Notes under the pieces: generated by a model
What the model was told of the DNA's origin: nothing
The model's database searches: none
The model's input: only the letters and a program-made list of their open reading frames with translations
Shown here: piece by piece, positions 2,758-27,030 of the stretch
How the letters are laid out: each line of letters begins with the position of its first letter
How positions within the stretch are numbered: the stretch's first letter is position 1
Source: a virus
Virus record (IMG/VR): IMGVR_UViG_3300030108_005626
Location: 3,304 to 67,303 of that record
Reading direction: 5' to 3' (one strand)
DNA: 64,000 nucleotides
Made by a program: the position numbers and the translations under genes

Positions 2758-3509
2758 TTATCATTACACTCGTCTGGAATGCAGACCCATTCTGCTAGTT
2801 CAGCTTTAGATAAACCACTTCTAATAAATTCCATGAGTTTTTCATAAGGTGAAGAAATAGCAATATTTCTAAACTTTACTAAAACAGAGTGAACCATTCC
2901 TACTAACTCACCTTTAGAATTAAGAATCATAGACCCAGAAGAACCAAAAGTAGCAGCAAGAGAATATACGTCTTGTCCGTTTTCCTCACCAGCATACCTG
3001 CCTTCAAATACCGGCACCATGTCATAATCAAACATACCCAAAGGAGCAGCTATGTTATAAACCTTTTCGCCTCTTTTCGGAGGTTTCATTGCCAGAGGTA
3101 TAACTTCAACTCCCTCAGTTAAACCCTCTGCAAAAAGTAAACAAGCATCAATTGATTGATCTTTTTTTAGAACAACTGCATCATATCTTTTTAATGATAG
3201 TGTTGAAACTTTCATGTGAATAGTTTGCTCGACTGACTCTAACAAACCTTTTTCGCCATCACAAACATGCGCGGCAGTGACTATATATGCGCCTTTGTCG
3301 GAAAGTCTAACGACATAACCAGAACCTGAAGATCTTAAATCCATTGTCGCGCATTTACCTTCACCAAAACATCTTTTTAATTGAACTGTTTTGCTAATAA
3401 ACGCAAATCCTTCTCTTGGAAAATCATTTTTTACACTTGAATTCATCGTGCCGCAAGAGAAAGTAAACAGCATAACGAACGCGAGGGCACTAACCATAAC
3501 CCTACTCAT
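2754..3509 (-). CDS. Trypsin-like (S1) serine protease with a probable lipoprotein signal
   Basis: Catalytic motifs TAAH, D and GSSGS are present. GGAGGA SD lies 7 nt before ATG 3509 (preferred over 3548). A hydrophobic N-terminus ends in FTFSC (lipobox-like). Confidence 0.85.
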   Translation of the reverse strand: MSRVMVSALAFVMLFTFSCGTMNSSVKNDFPREGFAFISKTVQLKRCFGEGKCATMDLRSSGSGYVVRLSDKGAYIVTAAHVCDGEKGLLESVEQTIHMKVSTLSLKRYDAVVLKKDQSIDACLLFAEGLTEGVEVIPLAMKPPKRGEKVYNIAAPLGMFDYDMVPVFEGRYAGEENGQDVYSLAATFGSSGSMILNSKGELVGMVHSVLVKFRNIAISSPYEKLMEFIRSGLSKAELAEWVCIPDECNDN

Positions 3510-3689: not shown

Positions 3690-5003
3690 ATGGCTAAAAA
3701 AATTTATATTCTTGATACAAGCGTTTGTTTGACAGACGCTAATTGTATTCGATCTTATGGTAATAACGATATTGTCCTCCCCCTTAAAGTTCTTGAAGAA
3801 ATAGACAACAACAAAAAAAGACAAGACGGCGCAGGAACAAATGCTAGAATGCTTATTCGCGATCTTGATGCGCTTCGTGAAAAAGGTAGTTTGTCTAAAG
3901 GAGTGAGAATTGATAAAGGTAAAGGTGTTATATGCGTGAAGATGGTTAAACGAGAGGGTATACCAGATGATTTAGATCTTTCTGTCCCTGATAATGAGAT
4001 CATTAGCGTTGCGTTAAACCAAAAAAATGAAAACCCAAAAAGAAAAGTAATCGTGGTCACACGAGACATTAACATGCGTGTTAAATGCGATTCTCTGGGT
4101 CTTCCGACTGAGGATTATAATTCAGATCAAGTTATAAAAGATACAGATAATATATACACTGGTTTTGTCGAACACTTGGTTGATGAACCTGTCCTTGATA
4201 GGTTTTACAATGGAGAAGAAGTCTACATTGATGAAGAGGAATTAGAATTAAATCCAAATCAGTTTTTAATGCTGATATCGAATCAAAATGAAAAAAAGAC
4301 TGCTCTCGGAAAGTTTGAATCTTATGAGAAACCCCTGAAGTTGATCAACCCCGGTAATAAAAAAAGACTTTGGGGTTTGAAATCTAGAAACAAAGAGCAA
4401 ATTTTTGCCATGGATTTATTAGAAGATAAAAAAATAAATGTTGTCACACTAGTGGGTAAGGCCGGTTGCGGTAAAACATTAATGGCAATCGCTGCCGGTC
4501 TTAGTCAAGTTGTAGAAAAAGAAACGTATAGTCGTTTAGTTGTATCTAGACCCATTCAACCAATGGGTAGAGATATTGGTTTCTTACCAGGAACTATGGA
4601 AGAAAAAATGTCTCCTTGGGTTGCTCCTATTCGTGATAATTTAGAATATCTAATGGCAAACGACAAAGCAACGTTAGAGACATATCTAGACCGTGGAAAA
4701 ATAGAGGTGGAAGCGCTAACTTATATAAGAGGTAGGTCAATTGCCAATGCTTTTATTATTATAGATGAAGCACAAAACCTTACTGCTCATGAACTTAAAA
4801 CCATTCTCACTCGCGTTGGCGAGGGTACAAAAATAGTTTTGACCGGAGATATTGAGCAAATTGATAATGTATATTTAGATGAAACCTCTAACGGACTAAC
4901 TCACGCAGTTGAAAAATTTAAAACTTTTGAAATTTCTGGGCACGTAACGCTTAGAAAGGGTGAACGTTCTAAAGTTGCAACAATAGCGTCTAAAATACTT
5001 TAA
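3690..5003 (+). CDS. phoH: PhoH-family ATPase with N-terminal PIN domain (PhoH2/YlaK type)
   Basis: PIN motifs ILDTSV, VLEEID, DNEII, TRDINMR. PhoH motifs GKAGCGKT, GFLPG, YIRGRS, IIDEAQN, GDIEQID. Confidence 0.95.
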   Translation: MAKKIYILDTSVCLTDANCIRSYGNNDIVLPLKVLEEIDNNKKRQDGAGTNARMLIRDLDALREKGSLSKGVRIDKGKGVICVKMVKREGIPDDLDLSVPDNEIISVALNQKNENPKRKVIVVTRDINMRVKCDSLGLPTEDYNSDQVIKDTDNIYTGFVEHLVDEPVLDRFYNGEEVYIDEEELELNPNQFLMLISNQNEKKTALGKFESYEKPLKLINPGNKKRLWGLKSRNKEQIFAMDLLEDKKINVVTLVGKAGCGKTLMAIAAGLSQVVEKETYSRLVVSRPIQPMGRDIGFLPGTMEEKMSPWVAPIRDNLEYLMANDKATLETYLDRGKIEVEALTYIRGRSIANAFIIIDEAQNLTAHELKTILTRVGEGTKIVLTGDIEQIDNVYLDETSNGLTHAVEKFKTFEISGHVTLRKGERSKVATIASKIL

Positions 5004-7206: not shown

Positions 7207-8475
7207 ATGAGTAAAAAAATAAAAGTCTTGACCCTTAGCGACATGCCGCTTAGTCCAAGCGGTGTAGGCACTCAAACTAGATATATTTGTGAGGCATTAC
7301 TTAAAACAGGTAAGTTCCAGATCCGTTCTTTTGGTGGAGCTATTAAGCACCCTAAGTATGATCCAATAAAAACAGAGCAATATGGAGATGATTGGATTAT
7401 GTATCCTGTTGATGGATACGGTAATAAAGAAATGGTGAGATCCATTGTTAGACAAGAAAAACCAGACATTATGTGGTTCATGACAGATCCACGTTTCTGG
7501 GGTTGGTTGTGGGAAATGGAAAATGAGATTAGACCTTTAATGCCTATGGTTTACTATCATGTTTGGGATAACTATCCATATCCAACTTTTAATAAAACGT
7601 TTTATGAATCTAATGACTTTATTGCAACAATCTCAAAAGTAACAGACGACATTGTAAAAACAGTTGCCCCTAGTGTGAAATCTCAATATATCCCACATGC
7701 TGTAAATGCAGATATATTTAAACCATGTGAATATGATGAACTAGTGGAAGAATTCAAGAAATCAACTTTCGGTGAATTTTACGATCCTGATAAGTTTATA
7801 TTTTTCTGGAACAATAGAAACGCAAGAAGAAAACAATCTGGGTCCTTAATTTTTTGGTTTAATGAATTTTTAGACCGAGTTGGTCGTGATAAAGCATGTT
7901 TAATAATGCACACTGAGGTTAAAGATCCAAATGGTCAAGATCTGCAACAAATTATAAATCACTTAAATTTGACAAACGGAGAAGTTTTGTTTAGTCAAGA
8001 AAAAGTAGACTTGCGGAAATTATCTCTAATGTATAACATGGCAGACTGCACAATAAATATTTCAGATGCAGAGGGTTTTGGTCTTGCCACTCTAGAGTCT
8101 CTTTCGTGTGGAACCCCAATAATTGTAAATATGACTGGAGGTTTACAAGAACAAATTGTAGATGGAGATGAAAAGTTTGGAATCCCTCTATATCCAGCAT
8201 CAAAAGCAATTATTGGATCTCAGACAATTCCATGGATTTATGAAGACAGATTAAATGAAGAAGATGTTATCAATGCGCTTGAAGAAATTTTTAACATGAC
8301 AGAAGATGATCGTAAAAAAATGGGAGAGCGCGGCAGGCAACATGTTATGAAAAATTATAATTTTGAAAACTTTAATAAAACATGGGTAGATGTTATGACT
8401 AATTTACATGAAGAGCAGGGATCGTGGGATACTAGAAAATACAACAATAGATGGACTCTAAAGGAGGTGTGCTAA
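7207..8475 (+). CDS. GT-B glycosyltransferase (GT4-like)
   Basis: SGVG N-terminal loop, NRNARRK and EGFGLATLE motifs. Confidence 0.9.
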   Translation: MSKKIKVLTLSDMPLSPSGVGTQTRYICEALLKTGKFQIRSFGGAIKHPKYDPIKTEQYGDDWIMYPVDGYGNKEMVRSIVRQEKPDIMWFMTDPRFWGWLWEMENEIRPLMPMVYYHVWDNYPYPTFNKTFYESNDFIATISKVTDDIVKTVAPSVKSQYIPHAVNADIFKPCEYDELVEEFKKSTFGEFYDPDKFIFFWNNRNARRKQSGSLIFWFNEFLDRVGRDKACLIMHTEVKDPNGQDLQQIINHLNLTNGEVLFSQEKVDLRKLSLMYNMADCTINISDAEGFGLATLESLSCGTPIIVNMTGGLQEQIVDGDEKFGIPLYPASKAIIGSQTIPWIYEDRLNEEDVINALEEIFNMTEDDRKKMGERGRQHVMKNYNFENFNKTWVDVMTNLHEEQGSWDTRKYNNRWTLKEVC

Positions 8476-9737
8476 TGAAAGTCTTAGTGAGAGGTCCTGC
8501 TTTAACTAGAACTGGATACGGTGAACACTGCCGCTTTGTATTACGCTCTCTTCGCAAAGTTCAAGGATTAGATATTTATTTACTACCGGTAAACTGGGGT
8601 AATTCTGCTTGGGTTTGGGAAAGCAACGAAGAGAGGGTTTGGTTAGACGAAATAATTAAAAAAACTGCATTATACGGTCAACAGAATGGTCAATACGACA
8701 TGTCAATTCAAGTTACTATCCCTAATGAATGGCAGCGCATGGCGCCAGTGAATATTGGTGTAACTGCTGGAATAGAAACTACAAAAGTTGCACCTATTTG
8801 GATACAAAAGTGTAATGAAATGGATAAAGTTATAACCATATCAGAACACTCGAAAAAAAGTTTCATAAATACAATTTATGAGGGTGTAGATCAAAGAACA
8901 GGACAAAAAGCAATACTAAAGTGTTCAAATGATATAGATGTCGTTCATTACCCTGTAAAAACTTTTGACTCTTTACCTGATTTAGATCTACAACTTAGTA
9001 CTAACTTTAACTTTTTATCTGTAGCTCAGTGGGGTCCAAGAAAGAATTTAGGGTCTACTCTTAAGTGGTTCGTAGAAGAATTTTTTGACAACCCCGACGT
9101 AGGATTAATATTAAAAACCTTTGTGAGCGGCGGTTCTGTTCTCGATAGGCAGGCGATATATCAAGAACTTCAAAATACACTAAAAAAATATAAAGATAGA
9201 GAGTGTAAAGTTTACCTACTTCATGGGGATTTTAGTGATGAAGAAATGCACTCTCTCTATAAGCATAAAAAAGTAAAAGCACTTGTAAGTTTAACTCATG
9301 GTGAGGGATTTGGATTACCTCTCTTTGAGTCTGCTTATTGCGGACTTCCAGTGGTAGCTACTGATTGGTCAGGTCATTTAGATTTTCTTTACAAACCAAC
9401 AAAAAGTAAAAATGGAAAAAGCAAAACTAAACCACATTTTGCTCGTATTGAATATTCTTTGCAACCAATTCACCCTTCTGCTGTATGGAAAGGTGTGTTA
9501 CAAGCGGATTCAATGTGGGCGTATCCCCAACAGGGATCATATAAAATGAAGTTAAGACAAGTGTATAAAGATTATGGTAGATTTAAATCTCAAGCAAAAA
9601 AACTCCAAACGTGGATAGTTAAAAATTTTGAAGAACAGAAACAATATGATTGTTTTAATAATGCTATTGATGACTTTTTACCATCAAAAGAAGACAGCGA
9701 GTGGATGCAGACATTAAGTGAGATAGAAATAGTTTAA
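8475..9737 (+). CDS. GT-B glycosyltransferase (GT4-like)
   Basis: TGYGEH, RKNL and EGFGLPLFE motifs. Start placed at ATG 8475 (TAATG coupling, AAGGAGG SD). Confidence 0.9.
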   Translation: MKVLVRGPALTRTGYGEHCRFVLRSLRKVQGLDIYLLPVNWGNSAWVWESNEERVWLDEIIKKTALYGQQNGQYDMSIQVTIPNEWQRMAPVNIGVTAGIETTKVAPIWIQKCNEMDKVITISEHSKKSFINTIYEGVDQRTGQKAILKCSNDIDVVHYPVKTFDSLPDLDLQLSTNFNFLSVAQWGPRKNLGSTLKWFVEEFFDNPDVGLILKTFVSGGSVLDRQAIYQELQNTLKKYKDRECKVYLLHGDFSDEEMHSLYKHKKVKALVSLTHGEGFGLPLFESAYCGLPVVATDWSGHLDFLYKPTKSKNGKSKTKPHFARIEYSLQPIHPSAVWKGVLQADSMWAYPQQGSYKMKLRQVYKDYGRFKSQAKKLQTWIVKNFEEQKQYDCFNNAIDDFLPSKEDSEWMQTLSEIEIV

Positions 9738-9738
9738 G

Positions 9739-10602
9739 ATGAACAGTGTAATTTTTGTTGCCGATTTTTTCAAAAAAGACTTACTTGGCGGTGGCGAATC
9801 TAATGATAATGTCTTAATTAATCATTTATTATCTAACGGTTATAAAGTAGATTGTAAAAGATGCACAGAGATTACCTCAAGAGATTTTGGTAAAAATAAA
9901 CTTTTTATAATAAGTAATTTTATATCTCTAACCGAAGAGAATAAGCAAAATTTAAAAAATGAAAATTACATTATTTATGAACATGACCATAAATATGTAA
10001 AAACTCGCGATCCAAGTAAATACAAAAATTTTTTAGCAACAGAAAAAAACATAGTTAATAGTTCTTTTTACCACAACGCATATGCCGTTGTAGTGTTAAG
10101 CAAAATATGTAAAGAAGTAATAGAAAAAAATCTTAATATAAAAAATGTTTATAATATAGGTTGCAGTTTATGGAGCGAAGAAAAATTTAATTATTTATCT
10201 ACATTGACTTCTGCAAAAAAGAAAAATAAATTTGTTGTATTAAATTCTTCAAACCCAACAAAAAACACAAACGAAGCGATAAATTTTTGTAAAAAAAATA
10301 ACATTGATTTTGACTTACTTGATCCATGTGACGAGAGAAAACTTTTACAAGAATTATCTAAATATCAAGGTTTGGTTTTCTTACCTAGCGTCTTAGAGAC
10401 ATTTTCAAGAATATCTGCTGAAGCAAAAATGTTAAATTGTAAATTATTAACAAAACCAAAGTTGCTAGGATTTGCATCTGAAAAAGATATTTTCACACTA
10501 AATGGAGAGAAGTTGATTGAGCAGTTAAAATTGAGAAATAAAAAAGCTTTGCAATTATTTTTAAAACTATTAAGCGACATGAAGGTAAATAACGATGAAT
10601 AG
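9739..10602 (+). CDS. Glycosyltransferase (GT-B, divergent)
   Basis: GGGE N-terminal loop and an ETFSRISAE E-x7-E motif. Confidence 0.7.
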   Translation: MNSVIFVADFFKKDLLGGGESNDNVLINHLLSNGYKVDCKRCTEITSRDFGKNKLFIISNFISLTEENKQNLKNENYIIYEHDHKYVKTRDPSKYKNFLATEKNIVNSSFYHNAYAVVVLSKICKEVIEKNLNIKNVYNIGCSLWSEEKFNYLSTLTSAKKKNKFVVLNSSNPTKNTNEAINFCKKNNIDFDLLDPCDERKLLQELSKYQGLVFLPSVLETFSRISAEAKMLNCKLLTKPKLLGFASEKDIFTLNGEKLIEQLKLRNKKALQLFLKLLSDMKVNNDE

Positions 10603-11464
10603 TATGGCAATTGCCTCTGACCATAACGGAGTGCAACTTAAAGAAAAAGTTAAAAAATTTCTTAAAGAGCAAGGCATATTGGTAGTTGATTTAGGTCCAT
10701 ATGATCCAAATAACAAAGTTGATTATGTTGATTACGCAAACCAGTTAGGTAAGATTGTTTCAAATAATGATGTTGACAGTGGTATCTTGATTTGTGGAAC
10801 AGGTGTCGGCATGAGCATTGCTGCAAATAGAAACAACAATGTTAGAGCGGCATTGGTACACAATCACTTTACTGCACCAAAATGTAGAGAACATAATGAT
10901 GCTAATGTTCTTTGTTTGGGTAGTTGGATAACTGATGAAACAGAAACGATAAAAATTGTTTCTACATGGATAGGCACTGATTTTGGACAAGGACGCCATG
11001 TGAAGCGAGTAGAAAAGTTGGACACCAGCGCAAAAGTTAATAAAATAATCTTTACCAATGGAGTTTTTGACATATTACATTCGGGGCACATAGAATTATT
11101 AAGATTTGCAAAAAGTTTGGGTGATAAATTAATAGTTGCAATTAATTCAGACAGTAGTGTAAAGAAAATAAAAGGCGAAAACAGACCGATAAACTGTGAA
11201 AAAGATAGAAAAAGTGTATTAGAATCAATAAGTTTTATTGATGAAGTTTTTGTTTTTGAAGAAAGCAATACAATAGAGATATTAGATAAAATTAAACCGA
11301 ATATCATTGTTAAAGGAGGCGAGTGGACAAAAGATCAGGTAAGGCAAAGAGATAAAATCCCAGATCAGATCGATATAAAAATATTTCCACTTGTAAAAAA
11401 TTACTCAACTACTGAAACTATAAATAAAATAAAAGAAATAGAGTCATGGTTAAAAAAATATTAA
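10595..11464 (+). CDS. rpiB: Fusion of RpiB/LacAB sugar-phosphate isomerase and RfaE domain II (HldC-like) nucleotidyltransferase
   Basis: N-terminal ASDHNG, DYVD, ICGTGVGMSIAAN, HNDANVL, GRHxxR. C-terminal FTNGVFDILHSGH, NSDSSV..KG..RP, KGGEW, YSTT. Confidence 0.92.
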   Translation: MNSMAIASDHNGVQLKEKVKKFLKEQGILVVDLGPYDPNNKVDYVDYANQLGKIVSNNDVDSGILICGTGVGMSIAANRNNNVRAALVHNHFTAPKCREHNDANVLCLGSWITDETETIKIVSTWIGTDFGQGRHVKRVEKLDTSAKVNKIIFTNGVFDILHSGHIELLRFAKSLGDKLIVAINSDSSVKKIKGENRPINCEKDRKSVLESISFIDEVFVFEESNTIEILDKIKPNIIVKGGEWTKDQVRQRDKIPDQIDIKIFPLVKNYSTTETINKIKEIESWLKKY

Positions 11465-12216
11465 TAATTGGCGACACAATAATTGATGAGGATATTAATT
11501 TAAAAGTTATTGGACTGTCCTTAGAATCTCCAACGTTTAAAACAAAGACATCAAGTAAAAAAATTAATTTTGGAGGCGCTGCTAATGTAGCGCGATACGC
11601 TAGTAAATTTGGACTAGATGTTGATTTTTTAACTTGCATGAGTGTTGATAGTGAGAAGCACTTTAAAAATAAATATGATATTAATTTAATCAATATTGAC
11701 AATAGTGTAGAAAATAGAAAAACCAGATTTTACATCGAGCATGGAGATTCAAAATACAAACACTTGCAGATAAATGAGACTAACTCAAAAAGTGTATACA
11801 CAAACCTTCAAGAAAAAGGTTTACAAAAATATGATTTGATTGCTTTCTCTGATTACAGATGCGGATTAATTTCAAAACACATAATAGAAAAAGTAAAGAA
11901 TAGTGGTAAAAAGACTTTCGGCGCATCACAAGTTTCAGGAAAAAAATCAAATTTAAATAACTATGAAAAATTAGATTATATTGTGTGTAATGAAAGTGAA
12001 TCAGACACAGTAACCCGCAGACAAAACGTTCTAATCACCAAAGGCGATCAAGGGTGTGAAATGAACGGTACCCTATATCCAGCATATCCAGTAAAGAATG
12101 TAGAAACAATTATTGGCGCTGGCGATTGTTTTTATGCTGCATTTTTAGCATACGAATGTCCATCAAAATCTAATGAACTTGCATCAAGGTACGTAAGTGG
12201 TGATTTGTTTTGTTGA
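11446..12216 (+). CDS. PfkB-family sugar-phosphate kinase (RfaE domain I/HldA-like)
   Basis: IIGDTIID, SLESP, GGAANVA, SDY and GAGD anion-hole motifs. Confidence 0.85.
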   Translation: MVKKILIIGDTIIDEDINLKVIGLSLESPTFKTKTSSKKINFGGAANVARYASKFGLDVDFLTCMSVDSEKHFKNKYDINLINIDNSVENRKTRFYIEHGDSKYKHLQINETNSKSVYTNLQEKGLQKYDLIAFSDYRCGLISKHIIEKVKNSGKKTFGASQVSGKKSNLNNYEKLDYIVCNESESDTVTRRQNVLITKGDQGCEMNGTLYPAYPVKNVETIIGAGDCFYAAFLAYECPSKSNELASRYVSGDLFC

Positions 12217-12884
12217 TTAATGAATTAATACAATGTAACCAATCTTTGCAAAAAGAAAACTTGGTAATCTATACATGGGGTAATGTTAGCTGCCGTGAGG
12301 GTAAATATATTCTTATAAAACCCTCTGGCGTTAAGTTTGATGATCTGTCAAAAGAAAATATTTCAAAAATTGATATATCCTCTGAAGATTTGATATCCGG
12401 ATATAAACCATCTGTTGATACTCCTACACACATCCATTTATATAAAAACTTTAGAAACATCAACGCTGTAGTGCATACTCATTCAAAGTATGCTACAATA
12501 TTCGCACAAGCAAAAAAACCAATACCGTGTTTAGGTACAACACATGCAGATTATTTCTATGGAGATATTCCTCTAGTCGATGATTTATCTTACGATGAGA
12601 TTGAAAACAACTATGAGCAAAACACTGGAAAAAAGATAGTTCAATACTTTAAAAAAAATTCAATTGATCCGTTGAACATGGGCGCAGCATTGTGTCCATC
12701 TCATGGAGTTTTTACATGGGGAAAAGATTTAAGTTCTGCTTTAAAAAATGCTATAGTATTAGAATATATAGCAGAAGTTGCCTACAAAACTTTAGTTTTA
12801 AACCCAGAACCTAATTTCAATAATGAATTATTAGATAAACATTTTTTGAGGAAGCACGGAAAAAAAAGTTATTATGGACAATGA
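12210..12884 (+). CDS. araD: L-ribulose-5-phosphate 4-epimerase (class II aldolase/epimerase family)
   Basis: TWGNVS, IKPSG, PSVDTPTH, HTHS, GTTHADYF and C-terminal KHFLRKHG..YYGQ. Confidence 0.92.
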   Translation: MLINELIQCNQSLQKENLVIYTWGNVSCREGKYILIKPSGVKFDDLSKENISKIDISSEDLISGYKPSVDTPTHIHLYKNFRNINAVVHTHSKYATIFAQAKKPIPCLGTTHADYFYGDIPLVDDLSYDEIENNYEQNTGKKIVQYFKKNSIDPLNMGAALCPSHGVFTWGKDLSSALKNAIVLEYIAEVAYKTLVLNPEPNFNNELLDKHFLRKHGKKSYYGQ

Positions 12885-13287
12885 AAATATAAAATATGGA
12901 CGTCAATCTCTCCCACCAATAGATAGCGTGGTAAAAAGCGTTGAAAAATATTGGGGAGATATGAAAACTCTCTTTGAAAATGATCAATATACCGTAAAAA
13001 GAATATTTATGAAAAAAAATACTCAAAGCAGTATGGAGTATCATGTCAAGAAGAAAGAATCATATTATATTGAAAAGGGTAAACTAAAGATTGGAACTAG
13101 GATAGGTAGAGCAAAAAATACATCTTTGATATTAAATCAAGGAGATGTATTTCACATACCAGTTGGTTTTATGCATATGAGAATAGCGTTAGAGGATACG
13201 GTAATTATAGAATTTTCCACACTAGATGATGACGCTGATTCTCACATTGTAGAAGATGGAAAAACTTATATTCACAAGGAGGACTAA
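12874..13287 (+). CDS. Cupin-domain protein (sugar isomerase/epimerase-like)
   Basis: YHVKKKESY...G and P...H cupin motifs. Confidence 0.8.
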   Translation: MDNENIKYGRQSLPPIDSVVKSVEKYWGDMKTLFENDQYTVKRIFMKKNTQSSMEYHVKKKESYYIEKGKLKIGTRIGRAKNTSLILNQGDVFHIPVGFMHMRIALEDTVIIEFSTLDDDADSHIVEDGKTYIHKED

Positions 13288-13956
13288 ATGAAACTTTTTT
13301 TAGACACTGCTAATTTATCTCAAATACAAGATGCTATGGATAAAGGGGTAATTCAAGGAGTCACCACCAATCCATCACTTTTGGCAAAGGAACCAAAAAC
13401 TGATTTTTACAAACATATCAAGAAAATAGTTGATTTGTGCAAAAATTATAATAATGGTGTGCCTTTAAGTGTTGAAGTTTTTTCCATGAATCCTGACGAA
13501 ATGATTAATCAAGCAAAAGAAATAACAAAAGAACTTGACTATGATAAACTAAACATAAAAGTTCCAGTGGGTTTTGAAGAACTAAGAGTGATAAAAGAAC
13601 TGTCTCAACAGAATATAAAAGTTAATTGTACTTGCTGCTTCACTGCTACTCAAATGCAACTAGCCGCTCTGGCAGGCGCCAGATACGTTTCTCTTTTCTA
13701 TAACAGACTATATGATGCTAGTGGAGATCCGCTAAAAACTCTAAAAAGAGTAAGAACATTTATTGATAACAATAATTTAAATTGTGAAATCATTGCTGGA
13801 AGTATTAGAAATGGTTATGATTTAGAGGATGCATGGGATAGCGGAGCACACATAGTTACCGCTGGGTATGGAGTAGTAAAAAAGTCTACTCAGCATCCAA
13901 AAACAGATGAATCTGTAGATGGATTTTTAAAAGATTTTAAAGATTGGATAAATTAA
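13288..13956 (+). CDS. tal: Transaldolase (short TalC/MipB family)
   Basis: LFLDTA, GVTTNPSL, SVEV, Schiff-base Lys in IKVP, GSIR, HPKT..F..D. Confidence 0.92.
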   Translation: MKLFLDTANLSQIQDAMDKGVIQGVTTNPSLLAKEPKTDFYKHIKKIVDLCKNYNNGVPLSVEVFSMNPDEMINQAKEITKELDYDKLNIKVPVGFEELRVIKELSQQNIKVNCTCCFTATQMQLAALAGARYVSLFYNRLYDASGDPLKTLKRVRTFIDNNNLNCEIIAGSIRNGYDLEDAWDSGAHIVTAGYGVVKKSTQHPKTDESVDGFLKDFKDWIN

Positions 13957-14285
13957 TGGTTTACGTGTTTGACATAGATGGCACAATTTGCACTAATACA
14001 TATGGCGATTATGAAAAATCTAAACCGTTTTTAACTAGGATAGAGTATGTAAATAAATTGTATGATGAAGGAAACACAATAATATTCAATACTGCAAGAG
14101 GCATGGGAAGAAATAAAAATAATGCAGGTTTAGCGCATTTAGACTTTTATGATTTTACAAAAAACCAACTTGACGCATGGGGTGTTAAGTACCATCAATT
14201 ATTTTTAGGAAAACCAGCAGGGGATATTTATGTTGATGATAAAGGTTCTTTTGACAAAGATTTCTTTAAAGTTGTCGAGAGTTGA
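13956..14285 (+). CDS. Small HAD-family phosphatase (capsule-biosynthesis type)
   Basis: FDIDGT, TARG, GKP and YVDDK motifs. Start at ATG 13956 by TAATG coupling. Confidence 0.85.
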   Translation: MVYVFDIDGTICTNTYGDYEKSKPFLTRIEYVNKLYDEGNTIIFNTARGMGRNKNNAGLAHLDFYDFTKNQLDAWGVKYHQLFLGKPAGDIYVDDKGSFDKDFFKVVES

Positions 14286-14668
14286 AAGTGTTCACGAACG
14301 GATGTTTCGATATAATACATCGAGGACACTTAGAATTATTAAAATATTGTAAAACTTTAGGTTATGTTGTTGTCGGATTAAACAGTGATAACAGCGTTAA
14401 AAGGTTAAAGGGACAAGAAAGACCAATAAATAATCAATCCGATAGAAAACATTTACTTGAGTGTTTAAAGTTCGTAGATGAAGTTATCATTTTCGATGAA
14501 GATACTCCTATAAATTTGATTAATCAGATCCAACCGGATGTTGTGGTAAAAGGTGGAGATTATAAAGCAGAGGAAGTTATCGGATCAAACGTATGTGAGG
14601 TAAAAATATTTAATTATGTCAATGGATATTCAACAACACAAACAATTGAACGTATTAATAATAGGTGA
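14282..14668 (+). CDS. RfaE domain II (HldC-like) heptose-1-phosphate nucleotidyltransferase
   Basis: FTNGCFDIIHRGH, GLNSDNSVKRLKG..RP, VKGGDY, GYSTT. Confidence 0.92.
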   Translation: MKVFTNGCFDIIHRGHLELLKYCKTLGYVVVGLNSDNSVKRLKGQERPINNQSDRKHLLECLKFVDEVIIFDEDTPINLINQIQPDVVVKGGDYKAEEVIGSNVCEVKIFNYVNGYSTTQTIERINNR

Positions 14669-15401
14669 TAGTTGTATTGATATCTATCACTATGGCACTT
14701 GTGATAGATTAAGTCTAGAAGCACCAGTGCCAGTTCTAAAGCATATAGAAACCAAAGAAAAATCTGGGATGGCAATAAATGTAAAAGATAACTTTTCTTC
14801 TTTAGGTGTTGATACGTCTATAATAACTAATAATAAACAAGTAAAAAAAGAAAGGTTTGTCGATATAAAAAGTAAAAATCATTTATTGAGATTTGATTCT
14901 GGTGAGATAAAAAAATTACCGTCGATAGAAAAAGAACAAATATTAGATTATGAAATTGATTTTTTTGATGCTGTTGTTTTAGTAGACTATGATAAAGGTA
15001 GTTTGTCTGATGAAATATGCAGATTTATTTCAAAAAAGTGCTTTGAATTAAAAGTGCCATTGTTTGTCGACAGTAAAAAGACAGATCTGTCTTGTTTTGA
15101 AAATTCATTTATAAAAATTAATGACTTAGAATACTCAAAAGCATTTAAATTTCCAAAAAACTATGATTTAATAGTTACTATGGGTTCTCGTGGTGCGCTT
15201 TTTCAAGAAGTGATATATGAAACTGAACCTATTTCTGTTCACGATGTATGTGGAGCTGGTGATACCTTTTTTGCAGGTCTTGTTTACAAGTATCTTTTGA
15301 CAAATGATATTGTTGAGTCTATAAAATTTGCAAACAAATGTGCTAGAATAACTGTAACAAAAGAAGGAACTTACGCTCCAAAACTATCTGAGATCGAGTG
15401 A
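14616..15401 (+). CDS. RfaE domain I (HldA-like) heptose-7-phosphate kinase
   Basis: IIGDSCID, RLSLEAPVPV, DYDKG, DVCGAGDTF. True start may be TTG 14646. Confidence 0.9.
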   Translation: MSMDIQQHKQLNVLIIGDSCIDIYHYGTCDRLSLEAPVPVLKHIETKEKSGMAINVKDNFSSLGVDTSIITNNKQVKKERFVDIKSKNHLLRFDSGEIKKLPSIEKEQILDYEIDFFDAVVLVDYDKGSLSDEICRFISKKCFELKVPLFVDSKKTDLSCFENSFIKINDLEYSKAFKFPKNYDLIVTMGSRGALFQEVIYETEPISVHDVCGAGDTFFAGLVYKYLLTNDIVESIKFANKCARITVTKEGTYAPKLSEIE

Positions 15402-15404
15402 TAT

Positions 15405-15767
15405 ATGACATTAAAAAGTTTAAACATAAAATTTGTACCCAAAGGATGGGGATATGAAAGATGGATTGTAAACAAAGAGGAATATTGTGGAAAACTACTA
15501 TTTTTTGTTAAAGATAAAAGATGCTCTTGGCATTATCACAAACTAAAAGATGAAGTTTTTTATATACAATCTGGTAAAGTTTTGGTAAAATATTCAGATG
15601 ATGATGACATAACTAAAGCAAGTGAAGTTGTTTTATCGAAAGGAGACAACTTTCATGTATACAGAGGGTTGAGACACCAGATGATTGCCATAGAAGATAC
15701 TGAATTATTTGAATTTTCAACTCAACATTTTGATGAAGATAGTTATAGGGTTATAAAAGGAGATTAA
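15405..15767 (+). CDS. Cupin-domain protein (sugar isomerase-like)
   Basis: KGWGYE, SWHYHKLKDEVF and RH motifs. Confidence 0.85.
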   Translation: MTLKSLNIKFVPKGWGYERWIVNKEEYCGKLLFFVKDKRCSWHYHKLKDEVFYIQSGKVLVKYSDDDDITKASEVVLSKGDNFHVYRGLRHQMIAIEDTELFEFSTQHFDEDSYRVIKGD

Positions 15768-16631
15768 ATGTCTTTTATATACGAAAACAGAAAACCACCG
15801 TATAAAAAAGTTTATTTTGGAATCAATGGTCAGTTTGGTGATATTATAATGCAGATACCTGCCTTAGATCAACTGATAAAAGATAATCCAGAAACAAAAA
15901 TTGTATTTGGAATGTCAAAAAAATATGAACAAATATTACCTCTTTTTAAAGATTACCACCCTAATATAGTAGATTATAAAATATGGGAAGGGTATGATGA
16001 TTGGCCAACACAATCTGATTTGGAGTATATAAAGTCACAAAATTTTGATGCCATGTTCCCTTGCCAGATTCCGAAACACGATGATCCGTTTTTTGCAAAA
16101 CATCGGCACATTAACACGGAAACTGCTTTAATGTTGGGAATAGAAACCGATATAGTTGATATAAAGTTACCATACCCAAAAGATATTATAAAGGAACCAA
16201 AAACTGTTGCTCTACATCTATTTTCTAGTAAGTGGCCAGGTGGTATTCGATCAATTGATATTGCGAAACAAAACTTTATTGTAAATTATCTAAGGAAAAG
16301 AGGATATAAAATTTATCAATTATCAGGTCCAGGTCAACCGCATATAAAAAATACAACTTTTTTTAGAGGAACATATTTTGAAAGTTGCATGAAAATGCTA
16401 ACGACTGACTTCTTAGTGACGTGTGATTCTGGAATGCCGTGGATTGCATCTGCCTATAGTCACCATATGATAGGATTATACTCTTGGGGTTATAATCCTG
16501 AAATTGGAACAACTAAAAATTGGCAACCTGTAAATAAAAATGCAATTTTTGTAGAAAACTTTAGCGCAAACGATATTCAAATTAGTAAAATATTTAAACT
16601 TATAGATAAAAAAATAAGAGAGACGTCATGA
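15768..16631 (+). CDS. GT9-like (heptosyltransferase-family) glycosyltransferase
   Basis: FGDIIM near the N-terminus and TCDSGMPWIASA (cf. DSGxxHxAxA). Confidence 0.75.
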   Translation: MSFIYENRKPPYKKVYFGINGQFGDIIMQIPALDQLIKDNPETKIVFGMSKKYEQILPLFKDYHPNIVDYKIWEGYDDWPTQSDLEYIKSQNFDAMFPCQIPKHDDPFFAKHRHINTETALMLGIETDIVDIKLPYPKDIIKEPKTVALHLFSSKWPGGIRSIDIAKQNFIVNYLRKRGYKIYQLSGPGQPHIKNTTFFRGTYFESCMKMLTTDFLVTCDSGMPWIASAYSHHMIGLYSWGYNPEIGTTKNWQPVNKNAIFVENFSANDIQISKIFKLIDKKIRETS

Positions 16632-20627: not shown

Positions 20628-21698
20628 ATGGGAATTAAAGATGTTGATGGACATAAACTCATGTATTATCCAGAGGAGGTGGCAACGTGGAAAAAAACCG
20701 GCGCTGCGACCCCACTGCATGTAGAGATTGGACCCACGAATAGGTGTCAACATCATTGTAGTTTTTGCAGTGTTGACTGGATTACTCATGGCGTTGTAAG
20801 AATAGATAAGGACGTTTTAGTTAGAGCTATTGAGTCTATGGGCGATGTTGGAGTAAGATCCATATATTTTGCAGGAGAGGGAGAACCTTTGCTGCACCCA
20901 GGAATGGAAGACTTTGTTCAAACAGCGCACAAAAGAGGAATAAAAACATCAATGGCAACAAATGGAGGACTTTTAAATCAAAGAAGACTTCCAGGTCTTT
21001 TGCCTTATTTTTCTTGGATTAGGTTCAGTATTGATGCTGCAACTCCAGAAACACATCAAAGTATACATAAATCTAAAGATTTTAATAGAATTATCAAAAA
21101 TATAAGACTAGCGTGTGAATATAAAAAAGAACATAAATTACCAGTTGAACTAGGAGTTCAGTTTATTGTATTGGAAGAGAATTTAGAAGAAATGGAAATG
21201 TTTGCTGATCTGATGAAAGATGTCGGTGTTGATAATATTCAATATAAACCGCACCACAATCACCCTAAAAGCGCATCCAATCCCACTTTGTATAGTTTAA
21301 CTGATGAAGCTTTGCGATTAAGACTAATCAATCGTACAACAGATGATTTTCAAGTTATGGTACGCAGTAGAAATCTTGAAGAGATGCCACTTATTCCTGG
21401 TCAAGATCACAACTATTGTTACAAGAAATGTCATGCATATAACTTTCTAACGTTAATCGACGCCAAGGGTGGTTGTTATGGTTGCAACATCTTTTATGAT
21501 CAAAAAGATTATAGTTTTGGAAACATTTATGAACAATCTTTTGAAGAGATACATACAAGTGGTCAAGTTCAAGAAATCATAGAAAAGGTTGCAAAATTGA
21601 ACCATTCACAATGCGGGAATTATAAGTGTAGACCTCATGTATTAAATGAGTATTTAAATAGAATTGCAAATCCCGAACTCAATGATGAATTTATTTAG
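20628..21698 (+). CDS. Radical SAM enzyme with SPASM/twitch domain
   Basis: CQHHCSFC, GEGEPLL and TNG motifs; C-terminal Cys cluster with FGNI. Confidence 0.92.
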   Translation: MGIKDVDGHKLMYYPEEVATWKKTGAATPLHVEIGPTNRCQHHCSFCSVDWITHGVVRIDKDVLVRAIESMGDVGVRSIYFAGEGEPLLHPGMEDFVQTAHKRGIKTSMATNGGLLNQRRLPGLLPYFSWIRFSIDAATPETHQSIHKSKDFNRIIKNIRLACEYKKEHKLPVELGVQFIVLEENLEEMEMFADLMKDVGVDNIQYKPHHNHPKSASNPTLYSLTDEALRLRLINRTTDDFQVMVRSRNLEEMPLIPGQDHNYCYKKCHAYNFLTLIDAKGGCYGCNIFYDQKDYSFGNIYEQSFEEIHTSGQVQEIIEKVAKLNHSQCGNYKCRPHVLNEYLNRIANPELNDEFI

Positions 21699-25167: not shown

Positions 25168-26002
25168 ACTATTAATCGCTGGTCCTTGGATTGGAGAATT
25201 TGGATGGGAATTGTTCGCTTGGCAAGGATATGTGCGAGCGCTATCGGAAAAATTTGATCAAACAATTTGTATATCCTCACCTCATTCTAAATTTATTTAT
25301 GAAGATTTTTGTGATGAGTTTTTAAGTTTCACACCGATGGACAAAGGTGGGTATAAAGATTCTTTTTTTAGAACTGATTTTAAGATGAATAAAAAAATTC
25401 TTTTAGATATTTTGAAGCAAAGTAAAATTGACATAAAACAAAAAAACACAACACTGTTTGTGCCAAAAAGAATTGGAGATCCGCCGAGAACTCACTTTTC
25501 CGAACCTATGAATTTAGCGCAGTATAGTTTGTCACCAAAATATGTCAAATTTGCAGACAATAAAAACAAAGAGAAAACAGTTCTTGTTCATGCTAGAAAT
25601 AGAAAACTAAGATCAAAAGACAATTGGTCTGTAGAGAAATGGAAAGAATTAGTTTCTTTATTAAAAGAGATAGATCTATCAGTTATATCAATTGGATTAA
25701 AAAAAGAAGCAATGCATATTCCAGGGACAGAGGATAAAAGAGAGTGTGATCAAGAAGAACTTTTAAAAATAATATCCTCATCTGAATGCATATTTGGACA
25801 ATCATCAGGTGCCATGCACTTATCAACTTTATGTGGATGCCCTCAAGTTGTTTGGTCAGATATGTATAATTTTGATAGATACACAAAAAACTGGAATCCA
25901 TTTGATGTTGATGTTTTATTTTTAGCAGAACAAGAATGGCAACCTGAAGTTAAATACATTTTCGAAAAATTTGTAGAATGGAGAAAAACTAATGGAGCAT
26001 AA
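25154..26002 (+). CDS. GT9-like glycosyltransferase (divergent)
   Basis: GEFGWE loop, NWSVEKW and SSGAMHLSTL (GT9-type SGxxH). Confidence 0.65.
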   Translation: MKKDKLLIAGPWIGEFGWELFAWQGYVRALSEKFDQTICISSPHSKFIYEDFCDEFLSFTPMDKGGYKDSFFRTDFKMNKKILLDILKQSKIDIKQKNTTLFVPKRIGDPPRTHFSEPMNLAQYSLSPKYVKFADNKNKEKTVLVHARNRKLRSKDNWSVEKWKELVSLLKEIDLSVISIGLKKEAMHIPGTEDKRECDQEELLKIISSSECIFGQSSGAMHLSTLCGCPQVVWSDMYNFDRYTKNWNPFDVDVLFLAEQEWQPEVKYIFEKFVEWRKTNGA

Positions 26003-26816
26003 TAACGTAGGAGTTGTTGGTTTTGGATTTGTTGGGAAAGCAGTTAGTCAAATTTCAACAATTAGATCTCTAGATATATACGATCCAAATAATGAAGATT
26101 ACAATTCTGTTGATCAAAAAATTAGAGCATATAACTGCGATATTATATTTATAAATGTCCCAACAAATTTAAAAAATGGAAGATTAGATTTATCAATTTT
26201 AAATGAGTGTTTATTTTCATATAGGGCGCACAATTTAAATAAAAATTCAACAATTGTTATAAAATCTACCGTACCAGTTGGAACGTGTAGGGACCTTTCT
26301 GAAAAACATAATATTGAAAGTCTTGTATTCAATCCAGAGTTTTTATCCGAAAGAACCGCAATGGAAGACTTTATAAATGAAAAAGAATTATATTTAGCTG
26401 GTGAAAAAAGACATACAGAAAAAGTTAAAGAACTGTATGTTGAATTTTATAAAAAATGTGAGAATGGTGAATTACAAATATTTGAAACTGAATCTTGGGA
26501 AGAAATTGAATTATTAAAACTAGCGAGAAACACTTTTTATGGATTGAAGGTTTCTTATTGTAATAACATTTATAATCTGTGTAAATCAAAGAATATTGAC
26601 TATGATAAATTTAGAAAACACTTCTCTAGAGGAATATGGGTTGGAGATCAACATACTCATGTACCAGGACCAGACGGAAAGTTTGGATATGGTGGAAAGT
26701 GTTTGCCAAAAGATTCTACAGAATTATTAAACTTTTGTAAAAAACAAGGTATAATATTTGAAATGCTTGAAAAATCAATATTATTTAACGCAGAACAAAG
26801 GAGTAAGCATGAGTGA
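25992..26816 (+). CDS. UDP-glucose/GDP-mannose 6-dehydrogenase family, lacking the C-terminal domain
   Basis: GFGFVG, VPT, IKSTVPVG, NPEFL and GYGGKCLPKD motifs. Confidence 0.88.
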   Translation: MEHNNVGVVGFGFVGKAVSQISTIRSLDIYDPNNEDYNSVDQKIRAYNCDIIFINVPTNLKNGRLDLSILNECLFSYRAHNLNKNSTIVIKSTVPVGTCRDLSEKHNIESLVFNPEFLSERTAMEDFINEKELYLAGEKRHTEKVKELYVEFYKKCENGELQIFETESWEEIELLKLARNTFYGLKVSYCNNIYNLCKSKNIDYDKFRKHFSRGIWVGDQHTHVPGPDGKFGYGGKCLPKDSTELLNFCKKQGIIFEMLEKSILFNAEQRSKHE

Positions 26817-27030
26817 AATTGAACATACAAATTTATCAAAACAGGCGATTGGAGCACTTATGATGGCGCTGCAAAAGTCTTTATTGGAACAATCTGACAT
26901 TGTACCAGTTTTGGAAAATTTTAAAATGACAAACTCACCAAATGGTTTAGTTGTATTAAACCCGCCATTGGTTAAATTTAACGAAGAAACATCTCATAAC
27001 TGGGATGTGGTTGGTGATCAACCAGATTAA
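26809..27030 (+). CDS. Hypothetical small protein
   Basis: AAGGAG SD before ATG 26809. Confidence 0.65.
   Translation: MSEIEHTNLSKQAIGALMMALQKSLLEQSDIVPVLENFKMTNSPNGLVVLNPPLVKFNEETSHNWDVVGDQPD

Follow-up and report, generated by a model that had tools for sequence, protein, structure and literature searches.

A transaldolase-containing sugar gene cassette of marine T4-like phages and its possible role in a GmhA-independent route to activated higher-carbon sugars

Nucleotide-sugar genes in a phage glycan island

The window analyzed here is a 64,000-nucleotide stretch (positions 3,304 to 67,303) of the viral record IMGVR_UViG_3300030108_005626, which spans 67,303 bp and has a CheckV completeness of approximately 20%, making the absence of a gene from the window alone weak evidence. 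Region 10595-16631 belongs to a large island of glycan genes in a marine T4-like phage, and the genes of the region were assigned to families by Pfam and NCBIfam profile searches, with scores compared to the model cut-offs. These domain matches bore out the ten sugar-gene ORFs reported earlier, at the same coordinates (Table 1). The original prediction had placed all ten in a single pathway; instead they comprise two nucleotide-sugar branches, namely Branch A (10595-14285), a widespread six-gene core of an RpiB-HldC-like fusion, a PfkB kinase, AraD, a metal-type cupin, a TalC/FSA-size transaldolase and a small HAD phosphatase, and Branch B (14282-16631), a rarer set of a second HldC, HldA, a second cupin and a remote GT9-like transferase.

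Table 1. Sugar-related genes of the region and of the block upstream of it, in window coordinates
Coordinates	Strand	Feature	Basis
7207..10602	+	Upstream block: two GT4 glycosyltransferases and orf9739	Pfam GT4 matches
10595..11464	+	RpiB (residues 5-142) fused to HldC-like adenylyl/cytidylyltransferase (153-259)	Pfam, NCBIfam
11446..12216	+	PfkB-family sugar-phosphate kinase, divergent HldA-like, 256 aa	PF00294 56.5 bits
12210..12884	+	AraD-type class II aldolase-fold epimerase, L-ribulose-5-P 4-epimerase-like	NF006047 283.8, above cut-off 257
12874..13287	+	cup1, small metal-type cupin, candidate sugar-phosphate isomerase/epimerase	Cupin_1 PF00190 35.4 bits; PMI C-terminal PF01050 27.7, cut-off 23.6
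13288..13956	+	Short TalC/FSA-size transaldolase, distinct clade	PF00923 152.4 bits
13944..14285	+	Small capless HAD (113 aa), candidate phosphatase for the terminal phosphate	TIGR01689 42.7 bits (weak), DxDGT motif
14282..14668	+	HldC2, stand-alone HldC-like nucleotidyltransferase	rfaE_dom_II 163.6, below cut-off 181.5
14616..15401	+	HldA2, HldA-like heptose-7-P kinase homologue	rfaE_dom_I 140.2, below cut-off 345
15405..15767	+	cup2, second small cupin, full HxH...E...H metal motif	Cupin_2 PF07883 33.7 bits, alignment
15768..16631	+	Remote GT9-family (heptosyltransferase-family) glycosyltransferase	Family profile against structures

In the fusion protein that opens Branch A, the RpiB domain matches PF02502 (170.6 bits) and exceeds the cut-off of TIGR01120 (154.9 against 138.65), and the HldC-like domain matches PF01467 (68.6 bits) and falls below that of rfaE_dom_II (153.3 against 181.5). 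No variation is seen among 34 homologues at the catalytic residues D9, H10, C67, T69, H100, N101, R134, H135 and R138 or in the H162xGH165 motif, and the two domains occur together in all of the top 120 database homologues. The kinase has a GAGD motif and finds its best NCBIfam match in rfaE_dom_I, at 69.7 bits far below the cut-off of 345, with no match in the PDB at 1e-3. The small HAD has no Pfam match, and shares 46% identity with the HAD portion of a fused HAD-HldC protein encoded next to GmhA in cyanophage SynMITS9220M01. As previously proposed, kinase, phosphatase and nucleotidyltransferase are consistent with HldA/GmhB/HldC logic. By their scores, both above the NCBIfam cut-offs, RpiB and AraD resemble canonical enzymes of pentose-phosphate metabolism, which would fit supply roles or a pentose pathway no less well than the higher-carbon sugar route proposed below.

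In Branch B the best PDB match of HldA2 is Burkholderia HldA (4e84, E 1.2e-11), and orthologues of HldC2 (37-53%) lie alongside the cassette in cellular loci; in SynMITS9220M01 an orthologue of cup2 (71%) has a GHMP kinase on one side and a GT-A nucleotidyltransferase on the other. The terminal protein has no Pfam match of its own; nevertheless, a profile of its homologues matches the GT9 structures 3tov (9.3e-7) and WaaF 1psw (1.2e-4), and 18 of 33 homologues match PF01075. It is the only GT9-like gene in the window, where several GT9 enzymes had been expected. The Branch B set recurs in just two further loci (L012 and L013). The upstream block, in which orf9739 has an E-x7-E motif and no family match was found for it, is syntenic with the cassette in L001, L002, L006-L008, L010-L013, L019, L054 and L064.

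Conservation of Branch A across phage and cellular genomes

Among the 52 viral loci whose sequence extends 3.5 kb or more downstream of the fusion, kinase, cupin and transaldolase are each present in all 52 and the HAD in 50; in the 15 GTDB loci with room, the respective numbers are 15, 15, 14 and 11. AraD occurs in 48 of these viral and 13 of these cellular loci and is missing from 4 and 2. The proposed module is thus real and conserved as a unit, and its identical gene order in dozens of unrelated contigs is an arrangement far beyond chance. The six genes stay associated, with order mostly kept, in phage and cellular genomes ranging in GC content from 23% to 61%. The latter include genuine chromosomes of Parcubacteria and Terracidiphilus, as seen from neighbors such as PolA, SMC, ribosomal protein S16 and TrmD at one locus (L072) and TrpA/TrpB and LacI at another (L079). 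The suggested linkage to GT9 enzymes also holds in cellular genomes, in which they are usual neighbors: a true GT9 adjoins the cassette in all three loci examined (85.5, 89.8 and 61.1 bits), and 17 of 21 GTDB loci contain GT9-like ORFs.

Domain fusions, namely RpiB with the nucleotidyltransferase, cupin with HAD (L069) and nucleotidyltransferase with HAD (L063), further tie the parts of the cassette together. In SynMITS9220M01 the fusion partner of RpiB is a nucleotidyltransferase with a different fold (GT-A), and the fusion adjoins a PfkB kinase and a HAD; this module combines four activities with no adjacent cupin or transaldolase. We found no published description of such a cassette in the literature. 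Branch A represents a gene set common to many phages and some bacteria, and apparently an undescribed route to an activated sugar that lacks the usual first enzyme.

The transaldolase, the cupin and the missing GmhA

The closest PDB structures to the cassette transaldolase are the short transaldolases 3r8r, 1vpx and 3s0c. It has Phe instead of Tyr at the FSA position, and in the active-site loop the cassette versions share an S-L-F-Y-x-R motif of their own instead of S-P-F-V-G-R. In the cyanophage TalC part of the phylogenetic comparison that had been recommended, done as a quick tree, 55 of 56 cassette transaldolases, with which the window's copy groups, lie together and apart from TalC, with SH-aLRT support of 94 against a mark of 95. 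Five cassette-bearing cellular genomes provide further context. In three small ones (G010, G012, G013) the cassette copy is the sole transaldolase, and the other two (G011, G014) have housekeeping transaldolases in addition; a separate stand-alone RpiB is encoded by four of the five. These gene counts uphold the view that the cassette transaldolase and RpiB are dedicated rather than housekeeping enzymes. All five encode a transketolase, implying that sedoheptulose-7-P is available without a transaldolase.

Of the cassette proteins cup1 is the best conserved, with 38-89% identity across all 52 viral loci. Residues H57, K60, E62, H101, K42, E113 and D122 are invariant in the alignment, and the protein displays a His/Glu/His metal site with conserved lysines. 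Foldseek neighbors of its AF2 model (pLDDT 93.6) include the CapF cupin, D-lyxose isomerase, the sugar isomerase Z5688 and the T. barophilus PMI; the best of these, the CapF cupin, is a C3-epimerase acting on sugar nucleotides, and E-values are similar across the cupin matches.

The reported lack of a SIS-fold GmhA in the window was confirmed and extends to the entire 67,303-bp record (about 20% complete), in which profile searches recovered no SIS_2 or SIS match. The wider search for gmhA that had been called for gave no SIS_2 match in the whole records of nine of nine relatives, five of them at least 90% complete, and no PF01380 match in those five, with the sensitivity of such searches being low for phage proteins, as the annotated GmhA of cyanophage MT408532 scores just 18 bits (E 3.3e-4). 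Three of the five cellular genomes likewise yielded no above-cut-off SIS_2 match; G011 and G014 have a real GmhA alongside the cassette. Two of 78 loci, L080 and L077, have a GmhA-like SIS_2 gene within the cassette (52.4 and 50.2 bits), beside both cupin and RpiB, so that cup1 is a candidate isomerase and only a putative replacement for GmhA. The cassettes of these two loci may use sedoheptulose-7-P as substrate. Hosts, too, may supply GmhA.

A proposed pathway and its relation to known systems

Branch A probably specifies a route to an ADP-linked higher-carbon sugar (C7 or C8) that depends on the transaldolase and is independent of GmhA. It would constitute a self-contained pathway to the activated aldose. 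From the gene content we infer its substrates, order of steps, chain length, stereochemistry and glycan acceptor. The dedicated RpiB domain would provide ribose-5-P; the dedicated transaldolase, with fructose-6-P or sedoheptulose-7-P as donor, would then transfer a C3 unit to an aldose phosphate acceptor, giving a ketose phosphate beyond the housekeeping supply, preferably octulose-8-P or alternatively a heptulose phosphate. The metal cupin, or alternatively the RpiB domain, might convert this to the aldose phosphate in lieu of a SIS-type GmhA/LmbN. Phosphorylation of C1 by the PfkB kinase, removal of the terminal phosphate by the small HAD and formation of the ADP-sugar by the HldC-like domain would follow, with AraD as an optional tailoring or supply enzyme. 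By analogy to LmbR we tentatively favor an octose as the product, and rank a heptose below it as a rather doubtful candidate. Branch B would make and use a second, more heptose-like ADP-sugar, probably sharing the HAD of Branch A.

An unlikely alternative is that the product is the canonical heptose, with RpiB, transaldolase and AraD only boosting host sedoheptulose-7-P; a host GmhA, or a cupin catalyzing the GmhA reaction, would yield heptose-7-P, which kinase, HAD and HldC would complete for use by GT9. The kinases and nucleotidyltransferases do match the rfaE/HldA/HldC models best, GT9 genes are the usual neighbors, and a cyanophage encodes an orthologue of the HAD as a fusion with HldC, next to a true GmhA and HldD. 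Moreover, phages commonly carry talC as an auxiliary gene (502 phage records), and the two cassettes with GmhA-like genes would also fit. However, 14 of the 15 cellular cassettes with room have retained the transaldolase, which is the sole copy in three of five genomes, although all five encode transketolase. The co-occurrence of a real GmhA and the cassette in G011 and G014 makes a merely redundant pathway unlikely, and both the distinct clade and altered loop motif of the transaldolase and the RpiB-nucleotidyltransferase fusion favor a pathway role over a general boost.

Still less probable is a pentofuranose pathway, in which RpiB, with or without the cupin, generates ribose-5-P or arabinose-5-P, and PfkB forms the 1,5-bisphosphate, from which the HAD cleaves the 5-phosphate before the nucleotidyltransferase yields an ADP-pentose. 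It would account for the canonical resemblance of RpiB and AraD and for the SynMITS9220M01 module, and has a precedent in the Afh system, whose published outline follows the order isomerase, kinase, HAD, nucleotidyltransferase and employs GT4 enzymes as DNA arabinosyltransferases (PMC13326640); two GT4 genes lie upstream here. It leaves no role, however, for the transaldolase and cupin found in every viral locus, and the GT9 neighbors and HldA/HldC-like enzymes indicate a heptose-like pyranose donor. Furthermore, no ThyA-like hydroxylase/hydroxymethylase was found in the record or in four near-complete relatives, making known DNA-pentosylation chemistry unlikely. That ten unrelated sugar genes accumulated in a hypervariable island with no common pathway can hardly be credited: the island is highly variable among relatives and Branch B recurs only in L012 and L013, but the six-gene association of Branch A persists across phage and cellular genomes of widely differing GC content, with several of its genes fused to one another in some genomes.

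Synthesis of ADP-L-glycero-beta-D-manno-heptose proceeds via GmhA, HldE or HldA plus HldC, GmhB and HldD, with the product used by the GT9 heptosyltransferases WaaC/WaaF. The cassette resembles this pathway in its PfkB-type anomeric kinase, HAD phosphatase, HldC-type nucleotidyltransferase, GT9-family transferase and order of chemistry. It differs in lacking a SIS isomerase and HldD, in adding a dedicated transaldolase, the RpiB-nucleotidyltransferase fusion, AraD and a metal cupin, and in having a small capless HAD that is not clearly a GmhB; in this comparison all scores lie below the equivalog cut-offs. Apart from the lincomycin octose route, whose isomerase LmbN is of the SIS type, no nucleotide-sugar pathway is known to us that begins with a dedicated transaldolase. 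In the published outlines LmbR forms octulose-8-P from ribose-5-P and a C3 donor (PMC5854111), followed by isomerase, kinase, phosphatase and nucleotidyltransferase steps (works cited in PMC6819324). As far as these outlines go, the cassette shares the transaldolase start and the ensuing steps. It departs from that route in that its isomerase would be non-SIS, in its additional RpiB, AraD and cupin, and in its HldC-like nucleotidyltransferase, which implies ADP rather than GDP.

Phage NDP-arabinofuranose synthesis, as outlined in PMC13326640, involves an arabinose-5-P isomerase, the nucleotidyltransferase-kinase AfhE and the HAD phosphatase AfhF. It is likewise phage-encoded and leads from a pentose-phosphate-pathway ketose through isomerase, anomeric kinase, HAD phosphatase and nucleotidyltransferase. 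That outline features a SIS isomerase, an APH-like kinase and a GT-A nucleotidyltransferase, includes neither transaldolase nor cupin, and describes a role in DNA modification, whereas no ThyA-like enzyme was found with the cassette. Finally, cyanophage talC also encodes a short, TalC-size transaldolase in marine T4-like phages; however, it is just about 36% identical to the cassette copy, belongs to a separate clade and stands alone, whereas the cassette copy has an altered loop motif and sits within a nucleotide-sugar cassette.

The cassette, its relatives and its setting

ORF, Pfam and NCBIfam checks confirmed every gene that the original prediction had named between 10595 and 16631, along with its coordinates. 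The region encodes a protein that joins RpiB to an HldC-like nucleotidyltransferase (NT), two PfkB kinases (kin1 and HldA2), a second HldC, two small cupins (cup1 and cup2) and an AraD scoring above the NF006047 cut-off. Against rfaE_dom_I kin1 and HldA2 reach 69.7 and 140.2 bits respectively (cut-off 345); the closest PDB entry to HldA2 is HldA 4e84, and a PDB sequence search with kin1 returned no match. The top-scoring model for both the NT domain of the fusion and the second HldC is rfaE_dom_II (153.3 and 163.6 bits, cut-off 181.5), and the HxGH motif is present. The HAD protein, of 113 aa with a DxDGT motif, gave weak matches only (TIGR01689, 42.7 bits; HAD-SF-IIIA, 17.8 bits), and the short transaldolase has the catalytic lysine and a Phe where fructose-6-phosphate aldolase has Tyr. 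The product of orf15768 has no Pfam match by its own sequence; a profile of its homologues matches GT9 structures and 18 of the 33 homologues match PF01075, so that its predicted GT9-like character stands as a remote relationship. As the adjoining orf16628 belongs to no family detectable by Pfam, PDB sequence search or profile comparison with the GT9-like family, the several GT9 enzymes originally envisaged reduce to this single gene. For orf9739, upstream of the cassette, a PDB search of its family and profile comparison with the GT9-like family were both negative.

Relatives of the RpiB-NT fusion number in the thousands in marine metagenomes, the best 120 all having both domains; none of the 154 GenBank phage records that match it covers at least 80% of the fusion, and a nucleotide search of the whole module against GenBank phages gave a single short match, the cup2 orthologue of a cyanophage. 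An alignment of 34 relatives of the fusion was used to retrieve 58 IMG/VR loci and 80 GTDB loci, 21 of the latter encoding it (compared loci are designated by L-numbers). With five viral and five GTDB loci omitted from the counts due to early contig ends, the kinase, cup1 and the transaldolase are present in each of the 52 viral loci that extend 3.5 kb or more downstream of the fusion, the HAD in 50 and AraD in 48; for the 15 GTDB loci of the same extent the numbers are 15, 15, 14, 11 and 13. The most conserved cassette protein is cup1, with identity up to 89%. The set of second HldC, HldA2, cup2 and GT9-like gene is found elsewhere only in L012 and L013, and cup2 without the rest of this set also in L007, L009, L023 and L064. 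Given that the first genes are kept together and that the second set recurs in only two loci, the region consists of two units rather than one, namely a core cassette and an add-on.

The cassette is also cellular, with GT9 as its partner. Cassette loci range from 23% to 61% in GC; in L072 the cassette is flanked by PolA, SMC, ribosomal protein S16 and TrmD, and in L079 TrpA/TrpB and a LacI regulator lie near it. A true GT9 (61-90 bits) directly adjoins it in L069, L072 and L079, and a scan with the cellular GT9 profile found GT9-like ORFs in 17 of 21 GTDB loci (24 of the 79 sources in total). The cupin of cellular loci is often a bicupin, whose C-terminal half is the cup1 orthologue; cup2 was considered as the counterpart of the N-terminal half, and the comparison was negative. 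A second HldC-like NT is common in these loci, and fusions within cassette loci include cupin-HAD (L069), RpiB-NT-NT (L065) and NT-HAD (L063). Several cassette records among GTDB MAGs/SAGs labelled Pelagibacter or Prochlorococcus (L064, L066, L074 and L077) display phage-like synteny, such as the PhoH-PDDEXK-GT4 block in L064; these could be contigs of phages whose DNA was binned together with, or amplified out of, the cells they infected, in which case they would hint at the hosts.

The source record, an IMG/VR virus record, is linear, 67,303 bp long and ~20% complete (CheckV), the window being its bases 3304-67303. The window encodes baseplate wedge proteins as well as a late sigma factor, and its gp6-like protein shares ~32% identity with the counterparts in Flavobacterium phage immuto and Microcystis phage Mel-JY01; it is therefore a piece of a large marine T4-like myovirus without a close isolate. 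The stretch from 7.2 to 27 kb is a single long island of sugar genes, all on one strand. Three modules of related composition lie together in one island of the cultured Synechococcus phage SynMITS9220M01 (L005 in our comparison). Since its RpiB is joined to a GT-A NT, whereas that of the window is joined to an HldC-like NT, RpiB has become fused on two or more occasions, to NTs that differ in fold. The HAD part of its HAD-HldC fusion is 46% identical to the HAD of the window; being fused to an HldC-like NT beside GmhA and an HldD-like epimerase, this small HAD is also at work in a bona fide heptose context.

Features of the window, of its source record (L141) and of related loci; window positions unless a locus is named
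Feature	Position	Description
Adenylosuccinate synthetase homologue	L141:1-1032	Upstream of the window; 5'-truncated; PF00709, 277 bits; PurZ, found in 2-aminoadenine genomes, is among the PurA homologues of phages
Tail of 678-aa protein	3-779 (whole gene L141:2046-4082)	Sole match a weak cytidylyltransferase-like stretch
PIN-PhoH fusion	3690-5003	PF13638 + PF02562; several relatives also keep it 5' of their sugar islands
Core cassette	10595-14285	RpiB-NT fusion, kin1, AraD, cup1, transaldolase, HAD
Add-on	14282-16631	Second HldC, HldA2, cup2, orf15768
orf15768	15768-16631	Remotely GT9-like
195-aa ORF	19063-19650	Matches only the middle part of DegT-type aminotransferases; 78% identical in L012 and L013; may be a truncated gene, yet conserved
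Radical SAM-SPASM enzyme	20628-21698	Within the sugar island; counterpart in L001
UDP-glucose dehydrogenase-like gene	25992-27030	274-aa ORF without the start of the NAD domain, then a 90-aa ORF in another frame; may be split or degraded
Giant ORFs	31197-36779; 40876-50226	1860 and 3116 aa, amid baseplate genes; no PHROG match; probably fibre or host-recognition proteins
SynMITS9220M01 module (i)	L005:4064-6425	HAD, PfkB kinase, GT-A NT fused to RpiB (independent RpiB-NT fusion); annotated merely "phosphatase"
SynMITS9220M01 module (ii)		GHMP kinase, cup2 orthologue (71%), GT-A NT, two SDRs
SynMITS9220M01 module (iii)		GHMP kinase, SIS GmhA, small HAD-HldC-like NT fusion, HldD-like epimerase
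L001 module	L001:11839-14711	NT fused to APH-like kinase (AfhE architecture), adjoined by class II FBP-aldolase-like protein and small HAD; a further sugar-activation module of the same island

Transaldolase, cupins and the isomerase step

Five cellular genomes carrying the cassette (G010-G014) provide a background against which its enzymes can be viewed. The cassette transaldolase is the sole transaldolase of G010, G012 and G013, and G011 and G014 have housekeeping ones besides; a separate stand-alone RpiB is present in four of the five. Because all five possess a transketolase, sedoheptulose-7-P is available to them even if no transaldolase is present, and absence of transketolase, considered as a discriminator between heptose and octose, does not discriminate. 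A loop of the form S-L-F-Y-x-R is common to the cassette transaldolases, the solved short transaldolases having S-P-F-V/L-G-R. In a quick tree, from which identical sequences had been removed beforehand, 55 of the 56 non-identical cassette transaldolases form one group (SH-aLRT 94), the exception being the long-branched version from L077, and the comparators, comprising four cyanophage/marine-virus TalC, two bacterial-type and two housekeeping rows, all fall apart from it. Of the two clades, LmbR-like and cyanophage TalC, against which the original prediction proposed to place this enzyme, the tree covers TalC, and it separates the cassette group from cyanophage TalC and housekeeping forms. 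Taken together, these findings argue that the cassette transaldolase would carry out a step otherwise missing from the cell.

The two cupins have in common an invariant His, Glu and His together with lysines, cup2 having the full HxH...E...H site, and cup1 matches PF01050 at 27.7 bits (cut-off 23.6). With a confident AF2 model of cup1 (pLDDT 93.6), the top-ranked Foldseek match was the CapF cupin, which is a sugar-nucleotide C3-epimerase; D-lyxose isomerase, the sugar isomerase Z5688, KdgF and a Thermococcus phosphomannose isomerase followed closely, all matches having E values of ~1e-6 to 1e-7; isomerase structures among the matches are 7nzp, 3kmh and 7zvm. The conserved metal-site residues and the sugar enzymes among the structural neighbors suggest that the cupins are sugar enzymes that depend on a metal and act as isomerases or as epimerases, two functions that the sequence and fold searches did not separate.

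To our knowledge, and as textbooks have it, nucleotide-heptose synthesis always begins with the SIS enzyme GmhA. The original prediction that the window lacks a SIS-fold GmhA holds for the entire 67,303-bp record, which matches neither PF13580 nor PF01380; as this record is only ~20% of the genome, its absence there says little alone. Whole records of nine relatives, five of them 93-100% complete, are likewise without a SIS_2 match, and the five near-complete ones also without a PF01380 match. A control search recovered the GmhA annotated in cyanophage MT408532 at only 18 bits, and hence a very divergent phage GmhA could escape such a search. Among the cellular genomes SIS_2 matches above the cut-off occur only in G011 and G014, G010 and G013 having weak matches only, within long ORFs, and G012 none. 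Furthermore, 2 of 78 loci (L077 and L080) have a GmhA-like gene inside the cassette, beside GT9 and alongside cup1 and RpiB. The original prediction proposed that the cupins or RpiB replace GmhA; the GmhA-like genes of these two cassettes speak against a simple replacement of GmhA by the cupin.

Possible product of the cassette and comparison with known pathways

One possible reading, though less likely than not, is that the core cassette makes an ADP-octose. RpiB would supply ribose-5-P, the cassette transaldolase would give octulose-8-P, and a metal cupin would take the place of the SIS isomerase, RpiB being the other isomerase candidate. The transaldolase start would resemble that by LmbR, which joins ribose-5-P and a C3 unit into octulose-8-P (PMC5854111), and the kinase, HAD and NT would act as in the ADP-heptose pathway and in the phage NDP-arabinofuranose pathway (PMC13326640). 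We favor an octose as the product, first because it would be the simplest one to call for a dedicated RpiB as well as a dedicated transaldolase, and second because downstream enzymes homologous to those of heptose synthesis would be expected in an octose route too. The alternative is a heptose, only somewhat less probable. DNA hypermodification was rejected as the main reading, and attachment of the glycan to a DNA base in the known way is unlikely, since no ThyA-like gene (PF00303) was found in the record or in four near-complete relatives.

We found no published description of the cassette in the literature searched, which covered few subscription journals. Should the product be an octose, the cassette would represent the first pathway to a nucleotide-octose beyond the lincosamide antibiotic clusters. 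Such a pathway would have a wide distribution, comprising marine T4-like phages, Acidobacteria, candidate-phyla-radiation bacteria and MAGs labelled DPANN archaea, and would supply transferases of the GT9 and GT4 families. A chemistry that is known from lincomycin alone would then extend to ordinary cell-surface or virion glycans, and eight-carbon neutral sugars would be common yet overlooked in microbial, and perhaps virion, glycans. ADP-heptose serves as a signal in innate immunity and is also a drug target. If there is a second and widely distributed way into such sugars, via a dedicated transaldolase, an RpiB-NT fusion and a metal cupin, it would alter the way in which genomes are judged for their capacity to make heptoses or octoses, in that those scored as gmhA-negative may still produce such sugars, and would mean an unrecognized glycan building block for candidate-phyla-radiation bacteria and abundant marine phages.

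Among known systems, the canonical ADP-heptose pathway shares with the cassette a GT9 user of the sugar, remotely in the window and as a true GT9 in the three cellular loci; the two kinases and both NT domains resemble HldA and HldC, albeit below the model cut-offs, and GmhB (HAD-IIIA) is weakly resembled by the small HAD, whose orthologue is fused to HldC beside the cyanophage GmhA. Its isomerase GmhA, in contrast, has no match here or in the five near-complete relatives, within the sensitivity set by the 18-bit control. The phage Afh system for NDP-arabinofuranose differs in having a SIS arabinose-5-P isomerase, a type of domain not found in the source record, in joining its NT to a kinase rather than to RpiB, and in its ThyA-like 5-hydroxy-dCMP synthase, which has no counterpart in the record or the four relatives searched for one. 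Cyanophage and marine-virus TalC are ~36% identical to the cassette transaldolase and lie apart from the cassette group in the quick tree. LmbN, the octulose-8-P isomerase of the lincomycin pathway, is SIS-like, and no isomerase of this type was found in the record or in the five near-complete relatives. That NDP-octose pathway and the cassette each have a dedicated transaldolase, ribose-5-P being here only a candidate acceptor. Finally, the cupins may be akin to type II phosphomannose isomerase and other sugar-isomerase cupins, to judge from their His/Glu/His metal site and barrel; the CapF epimerase cupin ranks ahead of these, with E values in the same range.
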